Shown here one piece after another: positions 2,219-45,206 of a stretch of 64,000 nt of DNA. The position numbers and the translations under genes were made by a program. The number at the start of each line of letters is the position of its first letter. The first letter of the stretch is position 1. The stretch lies in NCBI RefSeq assembly GCF_030384885.1, contig NZ_CP128613.1; one strand, 5' to 3'. The notes below the pieces were generated by a model. It had not been told where the DNA came from, made no database searches, and saw only the letters and a list, made by a program, of their open reading frames with translations. The stretch comes from Escherichia coli (lineage in GTDB: Bacteria; Pseudomonadota; Gammaproteobacteria; Enterobacterales; Enterobacteriaceae).

Positions 2219-3205
2219 TTAAACCACCCGATCCAGCCCCAACATGCCGCGAGCCTGAATGAAACAGAGCAGCAACGTTCCCCATAAGGCCATCGTCAGG
2301 TAGGGGCTTATCCCGAGAATATTGAAGCCGCTTTCAATAATTTGCAGAAGAAACAGCGCCAGCACCATACCAATTATCCGCCCGCTGCCGCCGTCCGGAT
2401 TAACCCCGCCGAGTACTGCCGCGAGGATTGACACCAGCAAGTACGATTCGCCATAAGAGGCCTTAGCCGAGTTGAGTTTCGACATCATCAAAAATGCTGC
2501 TACCGCACAAAGCAAGGCGGAAATGACATACACCCATATCAGCACCCGACGCGTGTTAATACCGGAGTAAAGTGTTGCTCGTTCGTTAGAACCAATCAGA
2601 TAAATGGATTTACCGAGCGGCGTTTTCTCCAGCAATATCCACAGCCCCAGCGCCACTGCGGTAAACAACCACATCGGTAGCGGAATACCGAACCACTGTG
2701 CATGATTCAACCACAGCACCCATGAGGGATAATTGGCAATGGCGCTACCGCCTGTCACCAGAATATTTACCCCCTTGAGCAACGTCATCATCCCAAGCGT
2801 TGCAAGAATTGGCGACACTCGAATACCAGCAATCAATACGCCGTTACATAAACCGATTATCACCGCCGCGCCAGCGCCCGCCAGCAGCGTAGCGACAACC
2901 GTAGCAATACCCGGTGGATACTGAGTCGCCACCCACGCCATCACCAGTGAACAGGCGTTAGCAGTGGCAATAATTGACAAGTTAATGCCACCGCAAAGCA
3001 TGGTCACCGCCATAGCCAACGCCAGAATGCCCAGCACGGGCATTTGCGAAGCGACGGACTGGAAATTACTTATCGACCAGAAAATCTCCGGCATAGTAAT
3101 GCTGAAGGCGGCAACAGTTAGCACCAGCAGGCCGATCAAGTAAAACTCAATGTTATTACGCCACGATTTTTTCATAGCAGACTCCGGTTCTGATGCTGAC
3201 TCCAC
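2219..3205 (-). CDS. ABC transporter permease (monosaccharide/CUT2-type)
   Basis: 328-aa highly hydrophobic multi-TM protein; start overlaps the stop of the upstream permease (translational coupling). Confidence 0.85.
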   Translation of the reverse strand: MESASEPESAMKKSWRNNIEFYLIGLLVLTVAAFSITMPEIFWSISNFQSVASQMPVLGILALAMAVTMLCGGINLSIIATANACSLVMAWVATQYPPGIATVVATLLAGAGAAVIIGLCNGVLIAGIRVSPILATLGMMTLLKGVNILVTGGSAIANYPSWVLWLNHAQWFGIPLPMWLFTAVALGLWILLEKTPLGKSIYLIGSNERATLYSGINTRRVLIWVYVISALLCAVAAFLMMSKLNSAKASYGESYLLVSILAAVLGGVNPDGGSGRIIGMVLALFLLQIIESGFNILGISPYLTMALWGTLLLCFIQARGMLGLDRVV

Positions 3206-4143
3206 GCCGTGGCGCTAATGCTGGCAACGATGATGATGCCTGTGATCAATGTTTGCCAGTAAGACGAGACTCCCAATAAATTTAGCCCGTTTTGCATCAC
3301 TGCCAACAACACCACGCCGAGCAAAGTACCGGTTAACGTGCCGCGCCCGCCGAGCAAACTAGTGCCGCCAAGCACCACCGCAGCCAGTACTGTCAGCTCA
3401 TAACCCAGAAGAGAATCGGGGGCGACAGTCATCACCGTCCACGACTGCACTACACCCGCAGCACCAGACATCAATCCCATATAGCCGTAAACGAAAAGTT
3501 GCAGTTTCAGCACGCTAAAGCCGATGCGACTGGCTGATTCACGGTTCCCGCCAAGGGCATAAATTTTGCGCCCTACACTGGTGAAATTCATGATAAACGC
3601 TGTCAGCAGCACAACCGTAATCATGGCGATCAGCGGCAGACCAAGGCCATAGTCATAGCCGTCAACATCGGTGTACTTGAACAACATTACCCCCTGCTCA
3701 AACCACGGCGGAAAGTCGTACAGCCACACACCTTTACTCAACCATAACAGCAGGCCATAGAAAATATTCAGCGTCGAAATGGTGATGATGATAGAAGGCA
3801 CCCGTAGGCGATTAACCAGTAAGGCGTTTATTAAGCCAAGTAAAATGCCGATGCCGCCCGCCAGGGCAAACGCGACAGCAAAGTTGCCACCCATTTTTTG
3901 TAGCAACAGCACCATGCCGTATTGCGCAATGATGGTCATTGCCGGAAACGAAATATCAATTCCACCGGAAATTAACACCACAAACAAACCACAGGCGAGA
4001 ATAGTCAACATGGCATAGTTATTGGCGAGATCGTACAAATTACCGAATGTCAGAAACTCGTCGCTGCGCCAGGCAAGGCCAACAAACAGCCCCACAATCA
4101 GTAATGCCAGCCAGAATTCATGACGTTTTTTCAGTTCAACCAT
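3172..4143 (-). CDS. ABC transporter permease (monosaccharide/CUT2-type)
   Basis: 323-aa multi-TM protein; start overlaps the ATPase stop by 8 bp. Confidence 0.85.
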   Translation of the reverse strand: MVELKKRHEFWLALLIVGLFVGLAWRSDEFLTFGNLYDLANNYAMLTILACGLFVVLISGGIDISFPAMTIIAQYGMVLLLQKMGGNFAVAFALAGGIGILLGLINALLVNRLRVPSIIITISTLNIFYGLLLWLSKGVWLYDFPPWFEQGVMLFKYTDVDGYDYGLGLPLIAMITVVLLTAFIMNFTSVGRKIYALGGNRESASRIGFSVLKLQLFVYGYMGLMSGAAGVVQSWTVMTVAPDSLLGYELTVLAAVVLGGTSLLGGRGTLTGTLLGVVLLAVMQNGLNLLGVSSYWQTLITGIIIVASISATAWSQHQNRSLL

Positions 4144-5635
4144 TTACCACCTCCGCAATCCTGGCCTGAGAACTGCTGTCAGGCAGGAAGCTATGGGTGA
4201 TCTGACCTTTTTGCATTACCAAAATCCGGTGGCTTTGATACCACGCTTCTTCAATTTCATCGCAGATCATCAATACCGCAATGCCATGAGCCGCCAGATC
4301 GCTGATAATGCCGTATATTCCTGCTTTGTTGGCGATATCAACACCGACAGTCGGGCTATCGAGAATCAACAGTCGTGGCCCAATCGCCAGCCATTTGGCG
4401 ATCGATACTCGCTGCGCGTTACCCCCGGAAAGCGTATTCACCGGGAGATGTGGGTCAGAGACTTTGATGGTCAATGCCTTAATTAGCCTGTCCACCAGGT
4501 CACGCACTTTAGCTTCACTCAGAAAGCCGAAGCGATCTTTTACCTTGTGAAAAACAGTGCTAATGATGTTGTCTTCAATAGATTGCGCCATCACCAAACC
4601 GCGCGACATGCGATCTTCCGAAACATAACCAATACCGTGGCGGATGGCGTCCTGGTTACTATGCAGTGTAACCGGCTGACCGTTGATGAGGATCTCACCA
4701 GCATCCGGTCGGGTCATACCAAACAGACTCAGACATAATTCCGTGCGCCCCGCACCAAGCAGGCCAACAATCGACACCACTTCGCCCGCTTCCACCCGCA
4801 AGTTAATATTTTGATATTCCCCATGACGACTTAAATTACGCACCTCCAGCACTGGGGTGCTGGATTTTCCCTGCCACAACTCTCGCACCTGATATTCAAA
4901 CTCCTGGCCGGTCATCAGGAAACCGAGTTGTTTTGTGGTCATCTCTGCAGCCGGAAAGGTCCCGACCAGCTCACCATCTTTCAACACTGAAATACGGTCG
5001 GAAACTTCCATCACCTCTTCCAGACGATGACTGACGAAGACCACGCAAATCCCGCGTTCCCGCAATTGATGCACCACCTGTAATAACCCTTGCACTTCCT
5101 GATGGGTCAGCGAAGCGGTTGGTTCATCCATCACGATCAACCGTGCGTCCTGCGCCAGTGCACGGCAAATTGCCACCAGCTGACAGCGGGCAATTGAAAG
5201 CTCAGAAACGAGCGTATCCAGTGGCAATGTGACGTTAATACTGGTCATTGCCGCCTGCGCCACCTCACGCAGACGACGTCGGTTAACAAACAGACCGTGG
5301 TGATAGTGATTCACGGCGATATTCTCCCAGACACTCAGGTTAGGAAATAAAGAGAGGTCCTGATAAATCACCTGAATCCCCTGCGCCACCGAAGCGGCGG
5401 GTGTCAGCTTTGACCAGTTTTTCCCACCAAGCGTAATTTCCGCCCCCTCATCCGGGCGATAAACACCGGACATAATTTTAATCAACGTCGATTTACCACA
5501 GCCGTTTTGCCCGGCAAGGCAGTGCACCTCACCCGACATAAAGTCGAGAGAAACATCGCGCAGCGCTCGCGTGGCATGAAACGTTTTGTTGATATGACGA
5601 AGGGAAAGGAAGGTTTCCATAGCATCCCCTGGCAA
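4136..5635 (-). CDS. ABC transporter ATP-binding protein with two tandem ABC domains
   Basis: 499 aa; Walker A GQNGCGKST, signature LSGGN, Walker B ILDSP and duplicated cassette architecture typical of sugar importers. Probable true start at the internal METFLSLRHINKTF (~5620). Confidence 0.9.
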   Translation of the reverse strand: MPGDAMETFLSLRHINKTFHATRALRDVSLDFMSGEVHCLAGQNGCGKSTLIKIMSGVYRPDEGAEITLGGKNWSKLTPAASVAQGIQVIYQDLSLFPNLSVWENIAVNHYHHGLFVNRRRLREVAQAAMTSINVTLPLDTLVSELSIARCQLVAICRALAQDARLIVMDEPTASLTHQEVQGLLQVVHQLRERGICVVFVSHRLEEVMEVSDRISVLKDGELVGTFPAAEMTTKQLGFLMTGQEFEYQVRELWQGKSSTPVLEVRNLSRHGEYQNINLRVEAGEVVSIVGLLGAGRTELCLSLFGMTRPDAGEILINGQPVTLHSNQDAIRHGIGYVSEDRMSRGLVMAQSIEDNIISTVFHKVKDRFGFLSEAKVRDLVDRLIKALTIKVSDPHLPVNTLSGGNAQRVSIAKWLAIGPRLLILDSPTVGVDIANKAGIYGIISDLAAHGIAVLMICDEIEEAWYQSHRILVMQKGQITHSFLPDSSSQARIAEVVNG

Positions 5636-5668
5636 TAAGAATCGGGGCTTTCGCCCCGAAGAAATGGA

Positions 5669-6655
5669 TTAATAAAGTGAGTCAATATTGTCTTTGTTGA
5701 CCAGTAATACCTTATGGAAACGGATAATTCGCTTATCCATATCTACGTCGGCCTTACCGAGATTCTCCATTTCTAATCCAGGTTTGATCTCTTCACCCTT
5801 CAGCAACGTGCTGGCGACGGCCGCGAGTGCGTAACCTGCAGAGGCCGGATCGTAAGTAATCCCTTCGGTGATATCACCACTTTTAATCAGTGATGCCGCC
5901 TGTGAAGGGATCATCATGCCATAGACTGCGACTTTATTTTTCGCCCGTTTCTCTTTCACCGCACGTCCCGCGCCAATCGGACCGTTTGAACCAAAGGAGA
6001 CAACCGCTTTCAAGTCAGGATAGGTTTTCATGAGGTCCAGTGTGGTACGACGTGAGTCATCCACACTCTCGGCAACCGGCATGCGGCGGGTAACTTCATG
6101 CATATCCGGGTAATGCTCTTTCTGGTATTTCACCAGCAAGTCAGCCCATAAGTTATGCTGCGGCACGGTCAAACTACCCACGTAAATCACATAGCCGCCC
6201 TTGCCACCCATGCGTTTCGCCATATGTTCAACATATTCAGCGGCAAATTTTTCGTTATCAATGATTTCGATATCCCAGTTAGCACTTGGCTGACCGGGGG
6301 ATTCGTTGGTCAGAACCACAATTCCGGCATCTCGCGCTTTTTTGAATACCGGTTCCAGCACGTTGGCATCGTTTGGCACAATTGTAATTGCATTAACCTT
6401 ACGGGCGATTAAATCCTCAATGATTTTAACCTGTTGCGGAGCATCAGTACTTGAAGGTCCCACCTGTGACGCATTAACACCAAAGGCTTTACCCGCCTCG
6501 ACCACACCTTCGCCCATGCGATTAAACCACGGCATACCATCGACTTTAGAGATATTCACCACGACTTTTTCCGCTGCCTGGAGCGGCGAGGAAATTAGCG
6601 CAGCGCCTAATAACAGCGAAGACACCATATTGATAACAAAACGTTTATTCATCAT
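5669..6655 (-). CDS. Periplasmic substrate-binding protein (LsrB/RbsB-like, type I)
   Basis: 328 aa with N-terminal signal peptide (…SSPLQAAEK); overall resemblance to AI-2/ribose-binding proteins including the C-terminal NKDNID motif. Substrate unknown. Confidence 0.8.
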   Translation of the reverse strand: MMNKRFVINMVSSLLLGAALISSPLQAAEKVVVNISKVDGMPWFNRMGEGVVEAGKAFGVNASQVGPSSTDAPQQVKIIEDLIARKVNAITIVPNDANVLEPVFKKARDAGIVVLTNESPGQPSANWDIEIIDNEKFAAEYVEHMAKRMGGKGGYVIYVGSLTVPQHNLWADLLVKYQKEHYPDMHEVTRRMPVAESVDDSRRTTLDLMKTYPDLKAVVSFGSNGPIGAGRAVKEKRAKNKVAVYGMMIPSQAASLIKSGDITEGITYDPASAGYALAAVASTLLKGEEIKPGLEMENLGKADVDMDKRIIRFHKVLLVNKDNIDSLY

Positions 6656-6905
6656 TTCAGCCTCATTGCAGGGTAGTCAGGAAGTGTTCGCCCAAATTAG
6701 CGCGCTGGAGAGAATAAGAATTTTCGAATATTTTTATGCAGAATAAACAGCCCTATTTCAGGCAGCTATTAAAAATTTGGTTATAAATATGGACAAAACG
6801 GGCAGTAACAATAAGTGTGACAATCATCACGTAAAAAATAGTAAAACAAACACAATTAACGATATTTTATGTTTGTGAGTTTATTTCATGCGGATAGAGA
6901 GTTAT

Positions 6906-7316
6906 CTACACAACTTCAATGAGGGCATATTCTTCAAAAATAACGTCCATTTCGGGTGAATAGCTTCCCTCTGCCTGGAAAAAACGACGGTGTTCATTGC
7001 GCCAATATTCAAGACTAAGATCACCTTCACCTTCCTTACGGGCAAGCTCCGCGGTGACATCAGAAAATCGCAGTAAATGCAGGCCAATCACTCTGATAAC
7101 ACATACAGGCTCACCACGGCTATTTTCTACAATCTTATACTCACCAATCATCGGAAATGCGTTGTCTTCAATACATCCTGCCAGCGAACCACAGGAAGCA
7201 GTTTTAACACCAGTTGCAATCAACGTTGCGAGGTAATCGGCCAACGCTGCTGAATCGCCAAAACTACAAAAGGAAGCATGGGGATATTTTTGTGAGATTT
7301 TTTCTTTTATGGTCAT
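6906..7316 (-). CDS. ASCH-domain-like small protein
   Basis: 136-aa ORF of ASCH/PUA-like size and composition; assignment from sequence resemblance only. Confidence 0.55.
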   Translation of the reverse strand: MTIKEKISQKYPHASFCSFGDSAALADYLATLIATGVKTASCGSLAGCIEDNAFPMIGEYKIVENSRGEPVCVIRVIGLHLLRFSDVTAELARKEGEGDLSLEYWRNEHRRFFQAEGSYSPEMDVIFEEYALIEVV

Positions 7317-7613
7317 GAGAATATTTTCGCGATTACGGAAAAAAAATCACATCTTAATTACTGTCGATAACTATCAGCAAGAGGATCATTGGTTTTTCTA
7401 TGTTTAATCTTTTTTATCCGAAGCAGGTCACATTTATGGCTTGATAAATACCTTTGTTAAAACTCACTTTTGTGTATTTCTCTCAAATAATCCCCTGGAA
7501 ATTATGCCGGGAGATTATAAAGTTCAGGATCATTCATTAACAAACCATTCCCGCCCCACTCCCTGGGGCTTAAATCTCTTACTATTCACCGTTGCAGGCG
7601 TTTCAAATTCGTA

Positions 7614-18299: not shown

Positions 18300-20333
18300 T
18301 CACGCGTCCGGGAACATTACGCTATTACCCGGCGCTTCACGATGGAGATGGATAAAGTTTAGGTGCCGCTCGTACTGATCGAGAATATCGGTGATCACCT
18401 GCTCTTTGCTGTAGTCCATCAGGTCGTTACCCTGGCTGCCTTCTAACAGGAAGGTTTCCAGCCGGTAATAGGTCGATTTCCCGCTACGTGCGCGGTAGGT
18501 AAAGCCCGGCACCGAATATTGCTGTGGCCAAATCTGATAGACAAAGTTTTGCTCTTCACCCATATGCACCAGCAAATCCAGATGCCCTAACTGTTGTCCC
18601 TCTTCCGGCGGCAGGCTTTTTAGCTCCACGTACGCGCCGCGCAACCGCAGCTCCTGCGCCACTTCTTCCATTGCCGGGTAACAGACCGTCTCCATCATCT
18701 GTTTGGTGTAACGCGTGCCCGGATAATTCATCAGGCGCGAGAGACGTTTTTTCCAGCTCAGGCGATCCTGAAGCCCCAGCGGTCGCGGCGCGGTATCACG
18801 GTTGGCACTTTCACGGCGGTAATCTTCTACCTTCAGAGATTTATACAATCCCGCCATCACGAAGAAAATCACAAAGCTGAACGGCAGCCCCATGATTACC
18901 GTGGTGTTTTGCAGCGCGGATATCCCGTTGGTCATCAGCATGCCAAGCGTCAGCAGACCAATCGCCACCGACCAGAAGACGCGCAGCCAGCCGGGGGCGT
19001 CGCTGTTGATATCTTTAAGCTGCGAGGTGAAATTCCCCAGCACCAGCGCGCCGGAGTCCGCCGAGGTCACATAAAACAGCAGGCCAGTAATGGTGGCAAC
19101 CGAGGCGCTAAAGGTAAACGCCGGATACTGCGCCAGCAGGCTGTAGAAGCCGCGCTCCGGATGGACCATCGCTTCCTCGGCAAATGCCGCGCCGCCGTGG
19201 ATGATTTCATACAGCGCGCTATTGCCGAATACCGAGAGCCATAACAGCGTGAAGGTAAACGGAATAATCAACGTGCCCAGCACGAACTGGCGAATGGTGC
19301 GTCCACGCGAGATACGCGCCAGGAACAGGCCGACAAACGGCGACCAGGCTACCCACCATGCCCAGAAAAAGAGCGTCCAGTTATTCATCCACTCAACCGG
19401 GCGGTCAAAGGCGAAACTGTTGAGCGTCATGCCCATAAAGCGGTTAACGTAATCGCCAACGTTCAGCACCAGCGCATTAAGCAGGAACGAGGTGTCGCCC
19501 ATAAACAGCACGAACAGGATCAACCCCAGCGCCAGTGCGACATTGAGTTCAGACAATACGCGAATGCCTTTGTCGACACCGGAAGTCACCGAGATAGTCG
19601 CGATGATTACCGACAGCGCGATCAGCGCCGCTTTCGCCGCCATTGAATCCGGGATATCAAACAGTACGCTCAGGCCATAGTTAAGCTGCACCACGCCAAT
19701 GCCGAGCGTGGTGGCAATCCCGAAGATGGTGCCGATCACCGCTGCAATATCCACCGAGTGACCAATCGGCCCGTTGATCCGTTTACCGAAAATCGGATAC
19801 AGCGCCGAGCGGATCGTGAGCGGCAAATTATAACGATAGCTGAAGTATCCGAGCGCCATGCCCATCAGCGCATACATCGACCAGCCGGTTAAGCCGTAGT
19901 GAAACAGCGTCCAGACCATCGCCTGACGCGCCGCTTCCATCGTCTGCCCTGCCCCTTCCGGCGGCTGCATATACTGCGTGACCGGCTCAGCAACGGAGAA
20001 GAACATCAGATCAATACCAATCCCGGCAGCGAACAGCATCGCCGCCCAGCTCAGTAGACTGAATTCCGGTTTGGATTGTTCAGGCCCGAGCTTCACCGAA
20101 CCAAAACGCGAACAAGCGATGCAGACCACAAAGACAATATAGAGCGTTGCCGCCAGCAGATAGTACCAACCGAAGGTTTTAGAAACCCAGTCCAGCGTGC
20201 GGCCAATCCACAGGGCCGAGAAGTCGCGAAACAGGATCGTTGTCAGGGAAAACAACAAAATCAGTCCGGCGGAGGTGTAAAACACCACCGGATTGATTTT
20301 GTCCTTTTCCCTGCTGTGCGAAAGGTCTGTCAT
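18300..20333 (-). CDS. betT: High-affinity choline transporter (BCCT family)
   Basis: 677-aa polytopic membrane protein with a BCCT-type core and long C-terminal cytoplasmic tail; divergent from betIBA. Confidence 0.95.
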   Translation of the reverse strand: MTDLSHSREKDKINPVVFYTSAGLILLFSLTTILFRDFSALWIGRTLDWVSKTFGWYYLLAATLYIVFVVCIACSRFGSVKLGPEQSKPEFSLLSWAAMLFAAGIGIDLMFFSVAEPVTQYMQPPEGAGQTMEAARQAMVWTLFHYGLTGWSMYALMGMALGYFSYRYNLPLTIRSALYPIFGKRINGPIGHSVDIAAVIGTIFGIATTLGIGVVQLNYGLSVLFDIPDSMAAKAALIALSVIIATISVTSGVDKGIRVLSELNVALALGLILFVLFMGDTSFLLNALVLNVGDYVNRFMGMTLNSFAFDRPVEWMNNWTLFFWAWWVAWSPFVGLFLARISRGRTIRQFVLGTLIIPFTFTLLWLSVFGNSALYEIIHGGAAFAEEAMVHPERGFYSLLAQYPAFTFSASVATITGLLFYVTSADSGALVLGNFTSQLKDINSDAPGWLRVFWSVAIGLLTLGMLMTNGISALQNTTVIMGLPFSFVIFFVMAGLYKSLKVEDYRRESANRDTAPRPLGLQDRLSWKKRLSRLMNYPGTRYTKQMMETVCYPAMEEVAQELRLRGAYVELKSLPPEEGQQLGHLDLLVHMGEEQNFVYQIWPQQYSVPGFTYRARSGKSTYYRLETFLLEGSQGNDLMDYSKEQVITDILDQYERHLNFIHLHREAPGNSVMFPDA

Positions 20334-20461
20334 CCAGTATCCCCACTGTTATTGTTACCATTTAAAATCAAATTAGTAACAATTAAGACACATTTTATAT
20401 TGAACGTCCAATCAATAACGGCTTTAATGTATAAACAACGCTGATGAATGGAGTGGCAAAA
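20334..20461. promoter_or_regulatory. betT / betIBA divergent promoter-operator region
   Basis: AT-rich 128-bp spacer between divergent starts containing an imperfect inverted repeat ATTGAACG…CCAATCAAT that could be the BetI operator. Confidence 0.5.
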
Positions 20462-21049
20462 ATGCCCAAATTGGGGATGCAGTCGATCCGGCGCAGACAA
20501 CTGATCGACGCCACGCTGGAAGCAATAAATGAAGTAGGTATGCACGATGCGACGATCGCGCAGATCGCCCGCCGGGCGGGCGTTTCCACCGGGATCATTA
20601 GCCACTATTTCAAAGATAAAAATGGTCTGCTGGAAGCAACCATGCGTGATATCACCAGCCAGCTGCGTGACGCGGTCTTGAACCGCTTACACGCGCTACC
20701 GGATGGCAGCCCTGAGCAGCGATTACAGGCGATTGTTGACGGAAATTTCGATGAGACTCAGGTCAGTAATGCTGCGATGAAAGCCTGGCTGGCGTTTTGG
20801 GCCAGCAGTATGCATCAGCCGATGCTTTACCGTTTGCAGCAGGTGAGCAGCCGCCGATTGTTGTCGAATCTGGTGAGCGAATTTCACCGCGAGTTACCGC
20901 GCAAAGAGGCACAGGAGGCAGGTTATGGCCTGGCCGCGCTGATTGACGGTTTATGGCTGCGCGCGGCATTGAGCGGTAAACCGCTGAATAAATCTCTCGC
21001 ACACTCGCTCACCCGCCACTTTATCACTCAGCATTTACCCACCGATTAA
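20462..21049 (+). CDS. betI: TetR-family repressor of the bet regulon
   Basis: 195 aa from [14 protein letters not shown]; N-terminal TetR HTH. Confidence 0.9.
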
Positions 21050-21062
21050 CCGAGGAGACGTG

Positions 21063-22535
21063 ATGTCCCGAATGGCAGAACAGCAGCTTTATATACATGG
21101 TGGTTATACCTCCGCCACCAGCGGTCGCACCTTCGAGACCATTAACCCGGCCAACGGTAACGTGCTGGCGACCGTGCAGGCCGCCGGGCGCGAAGATGTC
21201 GATCGCGCCGTGAAGAGTGCCCAACAAGGGCAAAAAATCTGGGCGGCGATGACCGCCATGGAACGCTCGCGCATTCTGCGTCGAGCCGTTGATATTCTGC
21301 GCGAATGCAATGACGAACTCGCTAAACTGGAAACCCTCGACACCGGAAAAGCGTATTCAGAAACCTCAACCGTCGATATCGTTACCGGCGCGGACGTGCT
21401 CGAGTACTACGCCGGGCTGCTCCCGTCGCTGGAAGGCAGCCAGATCCCATTGCGTGAGACGTCATTTGTTTATACCCGCCGCGAACCGCTGGGCGTAGTG
21501 GCAGGGATTGGCGCATGGAACTACCCGATCCAGATTGCCTTGTGGAAATCCGCACCGGCGCTGGCGGCAGGCAACGCGATGATTTTCAAACCGAGCGAAG
21601 TCACCCCGCTTACCGCGTTAAAGCTGGCTGAAATCTACAGCGAAGCGGGCCTGCCGGACGGCGTATTTAACGTGTTGCCGGGCGTAGGTGCGGAAACCGG
21701 GCAGTATCTGACCGAGCATCCGGGCATCGCCAAAGTGTCGTTTACCGGCGGCGTCGCCAGCGGCAAAAAGGTGATGGCTAACGCGGCGGCCTCTTCCCTG
21801 AAAGAGGTGACCATGGAGCTGGGCGGTAAATCGCCGCTGATCGTTTTCGACGATGCAGACCTCGATCTCGCCGCCGATATCGCCATGATGGCGAACTTCT
21901 TTAGCTCCGGTCAGGTGTGTACCAATGGCACCCGCGTGTTTATTCCGGCGAAATACAAAGCCGCGTTTGAGCAGAAAATACTGGCGCGCGTTGAACGCAT
22001 TCGCGCGGGCGACGTTTTCGATCCGCAAACTAACTTCGGCCCGCTGGTCAGCTTCCCGCATCGCGATAACGTGCTGCGCTATATCGCCAAAGGCAAAGAG
22101 GAAGGTGCTCGGGTGCTCTGCGGCGGCGATGTGCTGAAGGGTGATGGCTTCGATAACGGCGCATGGGTTGCTCCGACCGTATTCACCGATTGCTGCGACG
22201 AAATGACTATCGTGCGCGAAGAGATCTTCGGCCCGGTGATGTCGCTCCTCACGTATGAGTCTGAAGACGAAGTGATTCGCCGCGCCAATGATACCGACTA
22301 CGGTCTGGCGGCGGGTATCGTCACGGCGGATCTGAACCGCGCGCATCGCGTCATTCATCAGCTGGAAGCCGGCATTTGCTGGATCAACACCTGGGGAGAA
22401 TCCCCGGCGGAGATGCCCGTTGGCGGTTACAAACACTCCGGCATTGGCCGTGAGAACGGCGTGATGACGCTCCAGAGTTATACCCAGGTGAAGTCCATCC
22501 AGGTTGAGATGGCTAAATTCCAGTCCATATTCTAA
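21063..22535 (+). CDS. betB: Betaine-aldehyde dehydrogenase (NAD+)
   Basis: 490 aa; aldehyde dehydrogenase motifs including the catalytic Cys region ([13 protein letters not shown]) and [10 protein letters not shown]. Confidence 0.95.
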
Positions 22536-22548
22536 CCAGGAGGTTTAT

Positions 22549-24237
22549 TTGCAATTTGACTACATCATTATTGGCGCCGGCTCTGCCGGCAACGTCCTCG
22601 CGACACGTCTGACTGAAGATCCGAACACTACCGTGCTGCTGCTTGAAGCGGGCGGCCCGGACTATCGCTTTGACTTCCGTACCCAAATGCCCGCTGCGCT
22701 GGCGTTCCCGCTACAGGGTAAACGCTATAACTGGGCGTATGAGACCGAGCCGGAACCGTTTATGAACAACCGTCGCATGGAGTGCGGACGCGGTAAGGGG
22801 CTTGGTGGATCATCATTGATCAACGGCATGTGTTACATCCGTGGTAACGCGCTGGATCTCGATAACTGGGCGAAAGAACCCGGTCTGGAGAACTGGAGCT
22901 ACCTCGACTGCCTGCCCTACTACCGCAAGGCCGAGACGCGCGATGTGGGCGAGAACGACTACCACGGCGCTGATGGCCCGGTAAGCGTGACCACCTCAAA
23001 ACCGGGTGTCAATCCGCTGTTTGAAGCGATGATTGAGGCGGGCGTGCAGGCGGGCTATCCGCGCACAGAAGACCTTAACGGTTATCAGCAGGAAGGTTTC
23101 GGCCCGATGGACCGCACCGTCACGCCGCAGGGCCGTCGCGCCAGCACCGCGCGGGGTTATCTCGATCAGGCTAAATCGCGCCCGAACCTGACTATTCGAA
23201 CTCACGCCATGACCGATCACATTATCTTTGACGGCAAACGCGCGGTAGGCGTCGAGTGGCTGGAAGGCGACAGCACCATCCCAACCCGCGCAACGGCCAA
23301 CAAAGAAGTGCTGTTATGTGCAGGCGCGATTGCCTCACCACAAATCCTGCAACGCTCCGGCGTCGGCAACGCTGAACTGCTGGCCGAATTTGATATTCCG
23401 CTGGTGCATGATTTGCCCGGCGTGGGCGAAAATCTTCAGGATCATCTGGAGATGTACCTGCAATACGAGTGCAAAGAACCGGTTTCCCTCTACCCTGCCC
23501 TGCAGTGGTGGAATCAGCCGAAAATCGGTGCGGAGTGGCTGTTTGGCGGCACCGGCGTGGGTGCCAGCAACCACTTTGAAGCAGGCGGATTTATTCGCAG
23601 CCGTGAGGAATTTGCGTGGCCGAATATTCAGTACCATTTCCTGCCAGTGGCGATTAACTATAACGGCTCGAACGCAGTGAAAGAGCACGGCTTCCAGTGC
23701 CATGTCGGATCGATGCGCTCGCCAAGCCGTGGGCATGTGCGGATTAAATCCCGCGACCCGCACCAGCATCCGGCGATTTTGTTTAACTACATGTCGCACG
23801 AACAGGACTGGCAGGAGTTCCGCGACGCGATTCGCATCACCCGCGAGATCATGCATCAACCGGCGCTGGATCAATACCGTGGCCGCGAAATCAGCCCCGG
23901 CGCGGAATGCCAGACAGATGAGCAGCTCGATGAGTTCGTGCGTAATCACGCCGAAACCGCCTTCCACCCATGCGGTACGTGCAAAATGGGGTACGACGAG
24001 ATGTCCGTTGTGGATGGCGAAGGCCGCGTGCACGGGCTGGAAGGATTACGCGTAGTCGATGCGTCAATTATGCCGCAGATTATCACCGGCAATCTGAACG
24101 CCACGACCATTATGATTGGCGAGAAAATGGCGGATATAATTCGCGGACGAGAAGCGTTGTCCAGAAGTCTGGCGGCGTATTTTGTGGCGAATGGGATGCC
24201 AGTAAGAGCGAAAAAACTGAATCGCGATTTGAACTAA
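22549..24237 (+). CDS. betA: Choline dehydrogenase (GMC oxidoreductase, FAD)
   Basis: N-terminal FAD motif [11 protein letters not shown]. The only in-frame start with a good RBS (AGGAGG, ~5 nt upstream) is TTG at ~22549; the track's ATG at 22504 lies inside betB without an SD. Confidence 0.9.
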
Positions 24238-24315: not shown

Positions 24316-24870
24316 ATGCTTCATATCCAGTATTCATGATGCTGGTTTTTTGCTGATGTTTTTACCAGAATATTCCTGATACAGACTATTAATTCAAGCT
24401 TATCTGCGACAGATTTCATTTTCTGGATATATTATGAGTGACAAATCAAACAGGATATCGATCTGATTGAAATTTTATTTTATCTGAAGAAAAAGATTCG
24501 TGTTATTCTGTTTATTATAGCTGTTTGTATGACAATGGTGCTATTATTTCTGTACATCAATAAAGACAATATAAAGCTGAGTTACAGCCTAAAAATAAAC
24601 CACACAACATCAGGCATACTTGTAAGCTGTGATAGCAATAATAACTTTGCCTGTCAGACCACAATGACTGAAGATGTTATTCAGCGAATTACGAGTTTTT
24701 TAGACCAGTACTAATGCTAAAAATTGCCTTGTCAAAAAAATGGTAGATGAATACAAACAAAACTCTGGGCAGTAATAAACAGCATTCTGACAGAGAGTGC
24801 CTGTATAAAGCTGAAGTGACAATGACCGGGAAGGGAGCCCGTCTTCAGGAAAGGATTCCTGTCTTTTTCA

Positions 24871-31142: not shown

Positions 31143-31736
31143 ATGGAAAAATACCTGCACCTGTTAAGTCGGGGAGATAAAATTGGCCTGACATTGATTC
31201 GTCTGAGTATTGCGATTGTTTTTATGTGGATTGGGTTATTAAAGTTTGTCCCTTACGAGGCAGACAGCATTACACCATTCGTCGCAAACAGTCCACTAAT
31301 GTCGTTCTTTTATGAACACCCGGAAGACTATAAACAGTATCTGACTCACGAAGGCGAATACAAACCAGAAGCAAGGGCATGGCAATCGGCCAATAATACC
31401 TATGGTTTTTCCAACGGTCTTGGCGTCGTGGAGGTGATTATTGCTCTGCTGGTTTTGGCTAATCCTGTCAATCGCTGGTTAGGTTTATTGGGAGGGCTGA
31501 TGGCATTTACCACACCGTTGGTAACACTCTCATTTTTAATCACCACCCCGGAGGCATGGGTACCCGCATTGGGTGACGCTCATCATGGTTTCCCTTATTT
31601 ATCCGGTGCTGGTCGCTTGGTATTGAAAGATACTCTGATGCTGGCAGGTGCTGCCATGATAATGGCAGATTCGGCGCGGGAAATTCTTAAACAACGCAGT
31701 AATGAATCCAGTTCAACGTTAAAAACTGAATATTGA
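31143..31736 (+). CDS. rclC: Inner-membrane protein (RclC-like)
   Basis: ~197-aa multi-TM protein immediately after rclB. Confidence 0.8.
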   Translation: MEKYLHLLSRGDKIGLTLIRLSIAIVFMWIGLLKFVPYEADSITPFVANSPLMSFFYEHPEDYKQYLTHEGEYKPEARAWQSANNTYGFSNGLGVVEVIIALLVLANPVNRWLGLLGGLMAFTTPLVTLSFLITTPEAWVPALGDAHHGFPYLSGAGRLVLKDTLMLAGAAMIMADSAREILKQRSNESSSTLKTEY

Positions 31737-33991: not shown

Positions 33992-36900
33992 TTATTTCAT
34001 CGCCTCCTCGCCCGTTGCCGTATTGGCATCCACCGCGGTAATGGTCACCGTCACTGGCTTCATTTCGTACCCGCCATAGGTCAGGGCGTTAAATGTGAAC
34101 GTATAGACACCAGGCTTGCTGGTACTAAATGTACGCGTGATTTTTCCGCTCACGAAATGGTCATTTTTCGACGGCAGGAACTGATAATCCTTCTCCGTCA
34201 CCCCTTCCGGCGTCTGAATGTCGACCCACATATTCCCGCCAACGGGGTTATTTGCCGACATCAGGGTCACCTCCAGCTTCGCAGTCGATTTCCCATCCGC
34301 CACCAGAGATTGCACATCAGATGATGCGGCGAGCACCGCGTTTTTATCATCCGCCACGAAACTGGATTCAGCCGTTTTCGTTGATACCTGACCGTTGTCC
34401 TGACTCACTTGCGCCGTAAGTGTATATTTCGCTGCAACAGTCGTGGTGGCGGTGAAAATAGCCTGCCCTTGCTCATTCGTTGTCGCTGTGCCATTCGGTT
34501 CCAGGTTTAACGAAGCCGGGCTGGCGGTCAGCGTCACTTCGCTATCTTTCAACAAATTGTTATTGGCATCAGTCACCGTAACTTTATACGTCTGTTTGGC
34601 TTTGCCATCCGCCACTGCACGGTTGCCAATCACCTCAATACTGGAGATGGTCGCCGTAGTCTTATCCGCCACAAACGTAATGCTCTTCGCGTCTGAAGGC
34701 TGGTTATTTCCTGCTGAAGCCGTGATCTCATACGTTCCGGCAGTCACTGAAACCACCTGCAACTCTGCTTTCCCCTCATCGTTGGCTTTCACCCAGACAT
34801 TATCGCCAGTAAGCGGTTTGACACCCCGGGGCAGATTAAATGTCACCAGAGTTCCTGGAACAGGGTTACCGTTTTTATCCTCAACGGTCGCCGTCAGCGT
34901 AAAGGCATCTTTGCCGTTTGCCACTTTTTGAGCGGCAGTGTCAACCTGCAGGTTTGCCTGACCGGTGCTGGCGTCTGCGTTGAATTTCACCGTGACCGTC
35001 TTCTGAGCATTATTCACTGAGGCCGTGATACTGTGTTCCCCAGCAACGGTTGCTATCAACTCAATGTCCGCTTTACCTGCCGCATTGGTTGTTACTGTAT
35101 TCCCCGTCTTGCTAGTCACACCCTGCGGTAAAGTCAGCGTAACTTCTTGCCCCTGCAACGGGTTACCATAGCTGTCCACGACGGTCAGGGTTACCTGGTT
35201 AGCAGACTGTCCATTTGCCAGTTGGTTATTCACCTTCACCGCCATATCACTGATCACTGCCCGGGAAGCGTCGCCTGCAACATTCAGCACCAATGGCTGA
35301 GCAACGGCATTTTGGCCGTTCACGCGTGGCATGACAGACAACTGACCTGCAGCCGATCCCAGCGTTAAGGTCGACACGTAGACCCCATTACCTTTCTCTG
35401 TCCAGTTTCCTGCTGAAGGACGCTCACTCCCCGTGCTGGCGGCACCGCTAAACACTGGTGCATCTGGCTTCAGCCCGGTGACCGGGTTCCCGTACGCATC
35501 CTTCACGGTGAAGGTGAGTTCCGTCGTCGTTTTAACCGTTGGAGTCTTATTGTCCGCAACAAGCGTAGAGTTCGCTGATGACATCTCCCCGGCGATGACC
35601 GTCAACTGCGCGGCTTCGGTGGCTGCTGGCTGGCCGTTGAAGAGCGGCATGACACGAAGCTCGCCCGTCTTTCCGCCTGTGGTCAACGTAGCAACATAGG
35701 AACCGTCACCTTTTTCGGTCCAACTGGAAATAGTCGCCCCTTCAGAGGCGGTCCCCGTCAAACTTGCCGACAACGAAAGACCACTGATAGCGTTGCCATG
35801 CGCATCTTTCGCCACCAGCGTCACGGTTGTGCTTTCGCCTGCTTTTACGCGATCTGCGGCTACAGACACTGTCGACTGGCCTGAAGATAACGCATCAGCC
35901 ACCACGGTTACTTTTGCCGCGTTTGCTGCCGCGTCCTGCCCATTGAGCTTCGGCATAACCTCTAATTCACCCGCCGTAGAGCCGAGAGTAATTTGCGCAG
36001 TCCACGTCCCATCACCATTATTTGTCCAGCCCGATGCCGTAGAACCTACAGCAGCGGCACCCGCTAATGACGGCGCTTCCGGCGTGAGGCTGGTCACAGG
36101 GTTGTCATAGGCATCTTTTGCCGTCCAGATTGCCGTAACTGTACCGCCAACCACCGGTTTATCAGGATTCAGTGTGATGGACGAATGTGCTGCATCAAGC
36201 GGCCCGGCAACAAACTTCAGCGTTTGTTGTAACGTGCCCAGCTGATACTGCTCGCTGAAGGCACGCACAACAACGTTTCCGGCACGGGTCGAAGAAACCG
36301 TGGCGCTGTAAACCCCTGGTTTTATTTCCGAAATGGCACCAACGGTTACACCATTAGTGTCTTGCGGAACAAGTCGCAGGCGGCTGGCTTCTCCCGTCAC
36401 CGGATTACCCTCGGAGTCCACCGCTGTCAGTGTCAGCGTGTAGGCTTGCTGACCATCAGCAACCACATCACCTGACGGCTCGTTAGCGCTCAGGGTGGAG
36501 TTTGCCACATCCATCATCGTGGCCCGCAGTTCTGCAGTGACAGTTTTGCTCATGTCATCAACGCTAACAGTAATCGTTACCTCACCTGACTGCGTTCCGG
36601 TAGTAAAGACAGACTGATACACCCCTGCTTCAGTTTCGGTGAACTCACCCAGTGTGGGTTTTGCCTGTGATTTAGTGGCCTTCAGGGTACGAGTCACAAT
36701 ATTTCCAGCCGGTTTGAAGGTTAGTTCAGTCTTGATCTGATCTTTCATGCCCGTGACTGGCTGGCCCTCGGCGTCGCGCAGAGACAGCACCAGCGGCTTT
36801 TGCTCATTACCGTTAGCAAGCATTTGAATACTGCTCTGACCGTCAAGCGTTAACGCCGTACGATCGGCGCTCATACCAGCTCCGCTAATAACCACTTCTG

Positions 36901-38245
36901 TCTGCACACGTTTCGAGGCATTGCCTTTGTTATCGTAGGCAACTGCTGAAATCGCATAATAATTGTCTTTGCCTGGACGGTAAGCCGGGAGCGTTACTTG
37001 CCACTGACTACCCTGACCGGTAATTTTGCCACCTTCAGCCAGTAATGACGGCGCTTCCCACTGCACATTTTTCAGTCCGTGAGTTGCTTTGCTGACCACA
37101 AGCCCCAGGGAAACCGTCTGACCGCCCTTGCCTTCAATACGCTCAGGCAGAGCAATACGGATCACTTCAGATTTGCGGTACTCAAGAACGATGTTGTTAT
37201 TACGCTCAACCAGGTCATAGCGGCTGCCTGCCAGCATTCGACGCTCGCGAATGCTGTCTGTATCGAGTTGTTTTTGCAGAGGTTCGCCAATTCGGTAGTT
37301 AACTTCCAGGCCAAAGCGAGTGTCATTCTCACCACTCTTGCCCTGCTTATGCCCGGCGCTCAGTGTCAGAAGAGGCACTGGTGTATAGGTTACCTCGGCA
37401 GAAATAGCATGCGGGTCTTTCTGGCGTTTATCTTTACCAAACAGCCCGACTTCATCGCCATAATACTGCTCATACATCAGGCTTGCGCCAAGCTGCGGCC
37501 AGGCAGGTAAATAGCCCTCAGCACGAATATCCCAGCCATTCGCCGGGCGTTCCTGATAATCCTCAACATCCGGTGATTTTTTCCAGCCAGAAGCCCGGAT
37601 ATAACCATTGGCGCTCAGTTTCAAATAATCACGCCAGTATTCCGCACCAACACCAATGCGGGTATGACTACGGGATAAATCATGATCGATAAAAGTATTC
37701 ACCCCCGCCATCCAGTCATTTCCTGAAAAATGACGCCAGCCAAAACCAATATTTGACTGAGTACGATCGTCGGTACGATGTATTGCCCCCTGAGTGAACA
37801 ACATATTTGTCGGCGTGTCATAAATCGGATAAAGCATTTCCAGCGAAGAGTCCTTCAGCGAGAAATTTTTATCGACATTCAGTTTGACGCGCGCAGTACC
37901 ATATTTCCCGAGCCACTCCTGTATTTCCTGGTTAGCTTTAGCTGTGGCCATTCCGGTAATAAAGTTACGTGTCGCATCGCTATCTGGCTGACTGCTTAAA
38001 AATGTCCCGGCATTTGCGGCAAACGATGCGACATTTTTCTCCACATTATTATCAGCAGCTACCGTGGTATTTTCCATGCTCAACCGTGGCTGAACCGCAT
38101 GCTGCGCGCGTGCTGCCATTACTGGGGTAAAGGTGACAGCGAGTGGGAAAAGAACCTGAACAGAGATATTTGCCCACGCCACGCAGCGGGCCAGAACTGA
38201 ATAACGAAATCGTGGTTGTTTATGACCTGTTTTATAACGTGACAT
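33992..38245 (-). CDS. eaeH: Intimin/invasin-family outer-membrane adhesin with tandem bacterial Ig-like (Big) domains (EaeH/FdeC-like)
   Basis: 1417-aa uninterrupted ORF; N-terminal beta-barrel-type region followed by about ten ~90-100-aa repeats with recurring (T/V)xxD-x-(Y/H)GNP(V/L) motifs. Confidence 0.9.
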   Translation of the reverse strand: MSRYKTGHKQPRFRYSVLARCVAWANISVQVLFPLAVTFTPVMAARAQHAVQPRLSMENTTVAADNNVEKNVASFAANAGTFLSSQPDSDATRNFITGMATAKANQEIQEWLGKYGTARVKLNVDKNFSLKDSSLEMLYPIYDTPTNMLFTQGAIHRTDDRTQSNIGFGWRHFSGNDWMAGVNTFIDHDLSRSHTRIGVGAEYWRDYLKLSANGYIRASGWKKSPDVEDYQERPANGWDIRAEGYLPAWPQLGASLMYEQYYGDEVGLFGKDKRQKDPHAISAEVTYTPVPLLTLSAGHKQGKSGENDTRFGLEVNYRIGEPLQKQLDTDSIRERRMLAGSRYDLVERNNNIVLEYRKSEVIRIALPERIEGKGGQTVSLGLVVSKATHGLKNVQWEAPSLLAEGGKITGQGSQWQVTLPAYRPGKDNYYAISAVAYDNKGNASKRVQTEVVISGAGMSADRTALTLDGQSSIQMLANGNEQKPLVLSLRDAEGQPVTGMKDQIKTELTFKPAGNIVTRTLKATKSQAKPTLGEFTETEAGVYQSVFTTGTQSGEVTITVSVDDMSKTVTAELRATMMDVANSTLSANEPSGDVVADGQQAYTLTLTAVDSEGNPVTGEASRLRLVPQDTNGVTVGAISEIKPGVYSATVSSTRAGNVVVRAFSEQYQLGTLQQTLKFVAGPLDAAHSSITLNPDKPVVGGTVTAIWTAKDAYDNPVTSLTPEAPSLAGAAAVGSTASGWTNNGDGTWTAQITLGSTAGELEVMPKLNGQDAAANAAKVTVVADALSSGQSTVSVAADRVKAGESTTVTLVAKDAHGNAISGLSLSASLTGTASEGATISSWTEKGDGSYVATLTTGGKTGELRVMPLFNGQPAATEAAQLTVIAGEMSSANSTLVADNKTPTVKTTTELTFTVKDAYGNPVTGLKPDAPVFSGAASTGSERPSAGNWTEKGNGVYVSTLTLGSAAGQLSVMPRVNGQNAVAQPLVLNVAGDASRAVISDMAVKVNNQLANGQSANQVTLTVVDSYGNPLQGQEVTLTLPQGVTSKTGNTVTTNAAGKADIELIATVAGEHSITASVNNAQKTVTVKFNADASTGQANLQVDTAAQKVANGKDAFTLTATVEDKNGNPVPGTLVTFNLPRGVKPLTGDNVWVKANDEGKAELQVVSVTAGTYEITASAGNNQPSDAKSITFVADKTTATISSIEVIGNRAVADGKAKQTYKVTVTDANNNLLKDSEVTLTASPASLNLEPNGTATTNEQGQAIFTATTTVAAKYTLTAQVSQDNGQVSTKTAESSFVADDKNAVLAASSDVQSLVADGKSTAKLEVTLMSANNPVGGNMWVDIQTPEGVTEKDYQFLPSKNDHFVSGKITRTFSTSKPGVYTFTFNALTYGGYEMKPVTVTITAVDANTATGEEAMK

Positions 38246-44884: not shown

Positions 44885-44938
44885 TTCATAATTCGCCGGA
44901 TTAACGATATTTGTCTGATTAATAATCAGACCGGATTA

Positions 44939-44972
44939 ATGTTGGTGTATTGATTACACCAACATTAATTTT
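44939..44972 (+). terminator. Rho-independent terminator of rpmE2-rpmJ2
   Basis: 11-bp perfect stem ATGTTGGTGTA / TACACCAACAT with a 5-nt loop, followed by TAATTTT. Confidence 0.7.
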
Positions 44973-45206
44973 CCTGGAAATATATTCTTTAAGTTCATTT
45001 AAAGCCAACTGCCTGACGTTTCTCTCTGAATATTCCATTATATTCATGTTGATTTATTGACCAACTTCTCCCCTGTATGCTGGTATCAACTCTCTTTTAG
45101 ACTGAACAAGCCACTCCGCCCCCTCCCTTTGCGGAGCAGCCTGCATTTACACTCAAACTGTTAAGATGATAAATGTGGTAAATCTGTTGGTACTAACATA
45201 AAACGT

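Follow-up and report, generated by a model that had tools for sequence, protein, structure and literature searches.

The betA gene in the window, by which we mean the whole 64-kb stretch of Escherichia coli DNA analyzed here, is very probably translated from a TTG codon at position 22549. This start is supported by a Shine-Dalgarno (SD) sequence and a gene layout that are the same as in the reference annotation. The TTG start is already known from the annotation of strain K-12, and it is found here in a divergent E. coli lineage. We propose a model in which betA is initiated at the TTG and its translation is both coupled to that of betB through an RNA hairpin and damped; as a whole, we consider this model very probable. 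In free mRNA, betB coding sequence approximately 40 nt upstream would pair with the betA SD. A ribosome that reaches the end of betB would unfold this hairpin and make the betA start accessible, or pass over to it, so that the translation of the two genes would be coupled. BetA output would be kept below that of BetB (approximately 0.3 by ribosome profiling) by the weak TTG in combination with the occluded SD. That the hairpin forms in vivo, that coupling takes place, and how large a share the TTG has in the reduction are all inferred.

Table 1 Features of the bet locus, in window coordinates.
Feature	Position	Strand	Basis
betT	18300–20333	divergent	NCBI annotation of NZ_CP027579.1
betI, first gene of the betIBA operon	20462–21049	+	annotation of the identical genome
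betB, betaine-aldehyde dehydrogenase (490 aa)	21063–22535	+	annotation of the identical genome, Pfam Aldedh, 3' translation
Predicted RNA hairpin	22495–22543	+	minimum-energy fold, partition function, 37-junction alignment
Upstream TTG in the betA frame, inside betB; rejected start	22504–22506	+	direct reading
betB-betA intergenic spacer, 13 nt, CCAGGAGGTTTAT	22536–22548	+	direct reading; identical in K-12
betA initiation codon TTG	22549–22551	+	annotation of K-12 b0311 and NZ_CP027579.1
betA, choline dehydrogenase (562 aa, GMC flavoprotein), including stop	22549–24237	+	TIGR01810, Pfam, PDB 9lq0
Terminator-like hairpin and T-run, candidate operon end	24327–24355	+	consensus scan only

The betB gene starts with an ATG and ends with a TAA stop codon at 22533–22535, as determined by direct reading of positions 22380–22740 and translation in the two relevant frames. 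Its product matches the Pfam family Aldedh with an E-value of 2.4e-178. The AGGAGG SD sequence of betA occupies positions 22538–22543, 2 nt past the betB stop, and is separated from the TTG by the five nucleotides TTTAT. The first-pass annotation had placed AGGAGG 5 nt ahead of the TTG and the TTG 13 nt past the betB stop, and direct reading reproduces both spacings exactly. The initiation codon is followed by the codons CAA TTT GAC TAC ATC ATT ATT GGC GCC GGC TCT GCC GGC. Across the window, a single AGGAGG-N5-TTG is present, that of the betA start, versus 0.38 occurrences expected by chance. The significance of the motif lies in its position, in frame and one codon ahead of the conserved N-terminus of BetA. 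The junction between betI and betB has the same layout as that between betB and betA, and is composed of a TAA stop, the 13-nt spacer CCGAGGAGACGTG, and an ATG. The candidate terminator is located approximately 90 nt 3' of the betA stop, in a region where the number of such sites does not exceed that in shuffled sequences.

The TTG at 22549 is the sole canonical start codon that fits the conserved N-terminus of BetA and has an SD at a distance of 5–9 nt. The betA reading frame is open only from a stop codon at 22489–22491, and translation reveals no ATG and no GTG in this frame between that stop and 22549. The earlier claim that betA starts at a TTG at about 22549 is supported by direct reading, by translation, and by the K-12 and NCBI annotations. 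The betA gene of K-12 MG1655 (b0311, NP_414845.1) is annotated from the same TTG within an identical junction sequence, which settles the comparison with K-12 that had been suggested as a check. The NCBI annotation of NZ_CP027579.1 (E. coli 2013C-4282) puts betA at window positions 22549–24237. The window is 100% identical to this genome over a 401-base query and 99.975% identical over 8,151 aligned bases. A look for N-terminal peptides or initiation-site data on BetA returned none: the TetRP supplement does not include betA, and the gene is not among the TRAINSPOTTER table entries listed. A full-text literature search returned nothing relevant on the TTG start of betA or on a swap of its start codon.

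The BetA protein belongs to the choline dehydrogenase equivalog family TIGR01810 of NCBIfam, which it matches with 1030.3 bits at a cut-off of 732.1. BetA residues 4–537 align to positions 1–532 of the 532-position profile, which thus opens at residue 4. The Pfam domains GMC_oxred_N (PF00732) and GMC_oxred_C (PF05199) cover residues 3–300 and 393–524, respectively. The GxGxxG motif that binds FAD is present as GAGSAG at residues 9–14, right after the start. The protein deposited as PDB 9lq0, "Oxygen-dependent choline dehydrogenase", is nearly identical to BetA and matches its residues 2–557. A 23-residue N-terminal extension, most likely a tag, precedes the alignment. Since 9lq0 aligns from BetA residue 2 behind this extension, a protein with such an N-terminus folds. 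BetA probably converts choline to betaine aldehyde, because it matches the equivalog and is nearly identical to 9lq0. The gene context, betT followed by betI-betB-betA, is present both in the identical genome and in the K-12 annotation.

The whole window is 94–97% identical to K-12, and therefore the lineage is divergent throughout. BetA is 98% identical to its counterpart in Pseudocitrobacter vendiensis, which had raised the suspicion that this strain acquired its bet locus by transfer; we rejected such an acquisition on the grounds of the window-wide divergence. A transfer of bet into P. vendiensis is the more likely direction.

The predicted hairpin joins the end of betB to the SD of betA. 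Its 5' arm, UCC-A-UCC-A-GGUUGAGAUGG, corresponds to betB codons S478, I479, Q480, V481, E482, and M483. The 3' arm takes in the betB stop codon and the betA SD (GGAGG, 22539–22543), and its partner lies approximately 40 nt upstream. Folded alone, the hairpin has an energy of -14.8 kcal/mol (z = -1.79), and 11 of 200 shuffled sequences fold as well; its stability is only marginally better than that of shuffled sequence. The total folding energy of the 120-nt context is unremarkable (z = -0.43). In the partition function, the SD core shows at least 90% pairing in three different contexts. Deleting the sequence upstream of the betB stop, as a stand-in for a ribosome that terminates there, leaves the SD largely unpaired. 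The junction combines a short intercistronic gap with an SD that is predicted in silico to be sequestered by upstream coding sequence. The tight coupling of betA to betB put forward in the first-pass annotation would be consistent with the 13-nt gap and with this predicted SD-sequestering hairpin.

The same pairing is possible in all 37 aligned Enterobacteriaceae junctions. Most of the 15 consensus pairs of the hairpin are invariant, and the covariation term is -0.19 for this alignment of near-invariant pairs. The alignment contains one compensatory change from G-C to C-G and two breaks, both of which affect the same pair. With hardly any pair varying, covariation carries no information here, and the alignment neither proves nor disproves the hairpin. 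None of the arm codons UCC, AUC, CAG, and GAG varies at its third position. The conservation of the hairpin also has other causes, since conserved residues of BetB are encoded in the 5' arm and the 3' arm contains the SD. A search of positions 22300–22800 against Rfam produced no match at E ≤ 1.

In betB as well as in betA, synonymous diversity reaches its minimum at the junction between them, within the bottom 1–1.5% of 15-codon windows; this signal is more informative than the covariation. Synonymous variation was expressed as the mean pairwise third-position difference at invariant-residue codons among 13 representative taxa. This difference is 0.39–0.40 overall in betB and betA and drops to 0.12–0.21 in the final approximately 20 betB codons and to 0.19 in the first 15 betA codons. 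The low variation fits selection acting on the RNA sequence; it is common at operon junctions and not specific to a hairpin.

The TTG start is conserved in E. coli and in a group of related genera. The 70-nt junction (22497–22566) is 100% identical in 5142 of the 5183 E. coli records that contain the locus. None of the E. coli records is a 100% match to an otherwise identical junction with ATG or GTG in place of TTG. The remaining 41 records carry variant junctions; the one that was inspected has two changes in betB and keeps the TTG. We extended the comparison to 80 loci from species-representative genomes. In this survey, the start-aligned codon is TTG in 33 of the 51 loci from Enterobacterales. 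The TTG is used by Pseudocitrobacter, Enterobacter, Huaxiibacter, Lelliottia, Leclercia, the Klebsiella oxytoca group, and Raoultella, as well as by Citrobacter amalonaticus and C. sedlakii. The start-aligned codon is ATG in Trabulsiella, Pluralibacter, Cedecea, Pantoea, Kosakonia, Rosenbergiella, and Tatumella. In most loci of Pseudomonas and Moraxella, an ATG precedes this site by one or two codons.

The genera that use TTG share the SD core GGAGG. The spacer behind it varies among them (TTTAT, TTTTT, TCATTT, TTTCA), as does the second codon (CAA, CAG, CAT), and therefore the TTG is not merely part of a frozen block. The betA genes of these genera, at least eight in number, are only 79–92% identical. 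Across the same 11 representatives, only 10–15% of synonymous third positions are invariant. The retention of a TTG that is one step away from ATG is suggestive of constraint. As evidence from the invariance of a single site, it is statistically not strong, because the background probability of such invariance is 0.10–0.15.

Published expression data place BetA below BetB. The synthesis rates used here are reportedly given in molecules per generation. They originate from the ribosome profiling of Li et al. 2014 in MOPS glucose, as tabulated in Dataset EV6 of Mori et al. 2021 (PMC8144880). Divided by the listed molecular weights, the values of Dataset EV6 become whole numbers, which are 39 for betI, 219 for betB, 67 for betA, and 51 for betT. 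The resulting BetA:BetB synthesis ratio is approximately 0.31 (67 versus 219), as obtained from few reads in uninduced cells. In the three highest-expressing samples in which both proteins were detected, the BetA/BetB mass-fraction ratio is 0.18–0.30 (Dataset EV8, PMC8144880). A separate deep proteome lists values of 90.65 for BetA and 143.1 for BetB (PMC6544118, supplementary file 6). BetA is membrane-associated and may be undercounted in the proteomic ratios. TTG starts about 3% of E. coli genes, and in reporters UUG is among the three strong start codons, reaching 10–100% of the level of AUG (bioRxiv 10.1101/063800). The idea, raised in the first-pass annotation, that a weak start codon may tune the BetA:BetB ratio is reasonable and fits the published synthesis rates. 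The expression data as a whole are consistent with damped translation of betA, and they do not separate the effects of the TTG, SD occlusion, mRNA decay, and poorer extraction.

A start further upstream, at position 22504, would give betA a 32-nt overlap with betB and a product of 577 aa with a 15-residue N-terminal extension. The first-pass annotation had described an in-frame ATG at this position. The codon at 22504–22506 is a TTG, and the nearby ATG at 22509–22511 sits in the betB frame, where it encodes the methionine of VEMAKF. The TTG at 22504 is the first canonical start codon in the open betA frame, which is open upstream in Enterobacter too. However, no properly spaced SD precedes it. 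Neither TIGR01810 nor PRK02106 aligns with the 15-residue extension, and the score becomes slightly lower when the extension is included. In Klebsiella and Raoultella, a 14-nt spacer throws the equivalent TTG out of frame and a TGA is present 15 codons upstream, and in C. amalonaticus and C. sedlakii the equivalent codon is TCG. Therefore, there is no conserved alternative start at this site. Neither the K-12 nor the NCBI annotation uses it. Lacking an SD and a gain in the profile match, lost from the frame or altered in relatives, and annotated elsewhere, initiation at 22504 was rejected, and we regard it as extremely improbable. Given the start at 22549, the translation of betA could still be independent of that of betB and rely on the gene's own strong SD or on a promoter located within the end of betB, in which case the 13-nt spacing would reflect only compact packing of the operon. 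AGGAGG with a 5-nt spacer is indeed strong enough for de novo binding of the 30S subunit, but the predicted pairing of the betA SD exceeds 90% as long as the upstream arm is not unwound. At 22504–22531 there is a weak promoter-like match, TTGAGA-16-CATATT. However, it agrees with the consensus at only 9 of 12 positions, such matches are not enriched over shuffled sequences (5 found versus 3.1 ± 1.7), and a promoter at this place would begin the transcript inside the SD. We rejected the internal promoter because of its partial consensus and the lack of enrichment, and we consider independent translation of betA unlikely.

The TTG might also be a neutral historical accident, in which case the BetA:BetB ratio would be set by other features, for instance occlusion of the SD, decay of the mRNA, or codon usage. 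The start codon would then persist only because the change from T to A or from T to G has not yet occurred or is nearly neutral. This explanation draws on the fact that the same operon runs with ATG in Trabulsiella, Pluralibacter, Cedecea, Pantoea, and others, and that Trabulsiella and Pluralibacter keep the hairpin alongside the ATG. It is also compatible with the background probability of approximately 0.10–0.15 for the invariance of one site. On the other hand, more than 5100 E. coli genomes are fixed for the TTG, as are at least eight genera despite the sequence divergence of their betA genes. The generally favored ATG is a single T-to-A step away, yet the TTG stays, which is suggestive and not decisive. 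We regard the neutral explanation as possible and on balance doubtful, and we retain the model of a TTG start with hairpin-coupled and damped translation of betA.

The identification of the betA start is mainly of use as quality control: a true non-ATG start can be recovered from the bare sequence, and the reference annotation of betA remains valid in an E. coli lineage that is divergent. The start is a further example of ordinary operon fine-tuning and opens no new question. The hairpin, the low-diversity junction, and the ratio of approximately 0.3 lead to a small hypothesis, according to which the aldehyde-producing step is kept below the aldehyde-consuming step. We tentatively speculate, while considering it rather doubtful, that the TTG and the SD-sequestering hairpin form a selected device across Escherichia, Enterobacter, Klebsiella, and Citrobacter, which makes betA strictly dependent on betB and approximately threefold lower in output. 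If so, the enzyme that consumes the aldehyde would always exceed the one that produces it, and toxic betaine aldehyde could not accumulate. Selection for the device would then have left its footprint in the unusually low synonymous variation of the junction.

The bet locus of the window closely resembles that of K-12 MG1655. The gene order of betT and betI-betB-betA is the same, and the junction TAA-CCAGGAGGTTTAT-TTG-CAATTTGAC is identical, with the same TTG start and 13-nt gap. The two loci differ in that their nucleotide identity over the bet genes is approximately 93%, as the window comes from a divergent lineage. BetA has 562 aa here and 556 aa in K-12; the difference is a 6-residue C-terminal extension, whereas the start site is without difference. 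Ribosome-mediated unfolding of a structure that sequesters the SD is a general mechanism of coupling in polycistronic mRNAs. The betB-betA junction resembles the known cases in its short gap and in that the betA SD is predicted to be paired with the upstream 3' coding region and freed on unwinding. It differs from them in that the betA structure is a predicted one, with a covariation term of -0.19. Like E. coli genes damped by UUG, betA combines a UUG start with a strong SD, and the synthesis of BetA is below that of BetB.

The bet locus of Pseudocitrobacter vendiensis (positions 1-4155 of L003, the locus taken from the representative genome of that species) aligns to window 20049-24203 with 96.6% nucleotide identity. 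In the same nucleotide comparison, the identity of the bet locus to the window is 88% for P. faecalis and 92.7% for Escherichia coli K-12 MG1655. The closer match to P. vendiensis than to either of these suggests that the bet locus has recently been transferred between the Escherichia lineage of the window and P. vendiensis.

The window matches E. coli 2013C-4282 (NZ_CP027579.1). K-12 shares only 94-97% identity with the window over its full length (nucleotide alignment, window 1-64000), and just 14 of 5183 E. coli records reach at least 99% identity around the betB-betA junction. The strain of the window seems to belong to a lineage that is both rare and divergent, perhaps one of the cryptic Escherichia clades recorded as E. 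coli.

The betI-betB junction (window 21047-21065) shares its layout with the betB-betA junction. The TAA stop codon is followed by 13 nucleotides that start with CC and contain a Shine-Dalgarno sequence (CCGAGGAGACGTG), and then by the ATG of betB, which is directly preceded by an in-frame GTG. The bet locus of Klebsiella oxytoca NBRC 105695 (L024) has ATA at the codon aligned with this ATG; either betB starts elsewhere in that strain, or a rare ATA start codon is used, or the sequence contains an error.

Features of the window outside the bet gene junctions.
Feature	Window position	Description	Source
ABC transporter cluster	5669-6652 and 2219-5620	includes annotated autoinducer-2 substrate-binding protein; between yahK and yahJ	
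BetA C-terminal end	24217-24237	...AKKLNRDLN*; 562 aa	
Hypothetical-protein pseudogene	24445-24699	incomplete; only fragment at the place of ykgH	annotation of identical genome
rclC	31143-31736	pseudogene, internal stop codons	annotation of identical genome
fdeC	33992-38245	inverse autotransporter adhesin; intact, 4.25 kb	
ykgL	44919-45146	pseudogene, internal stop codons	annotation of identical genome

BetA of the window is six residues longer than its K-12 counterpart, which has 556 residues and ends in ...AKK*. Downstream of betA, K-12 carries ykgH, which is absent from the window. No K-12 sequence aligned across window 2291-7552 in the K-12 alignment of the window. At the position of the intact fdeC, K-12 contains the eaeH pseudogene, disrupted by IS3.
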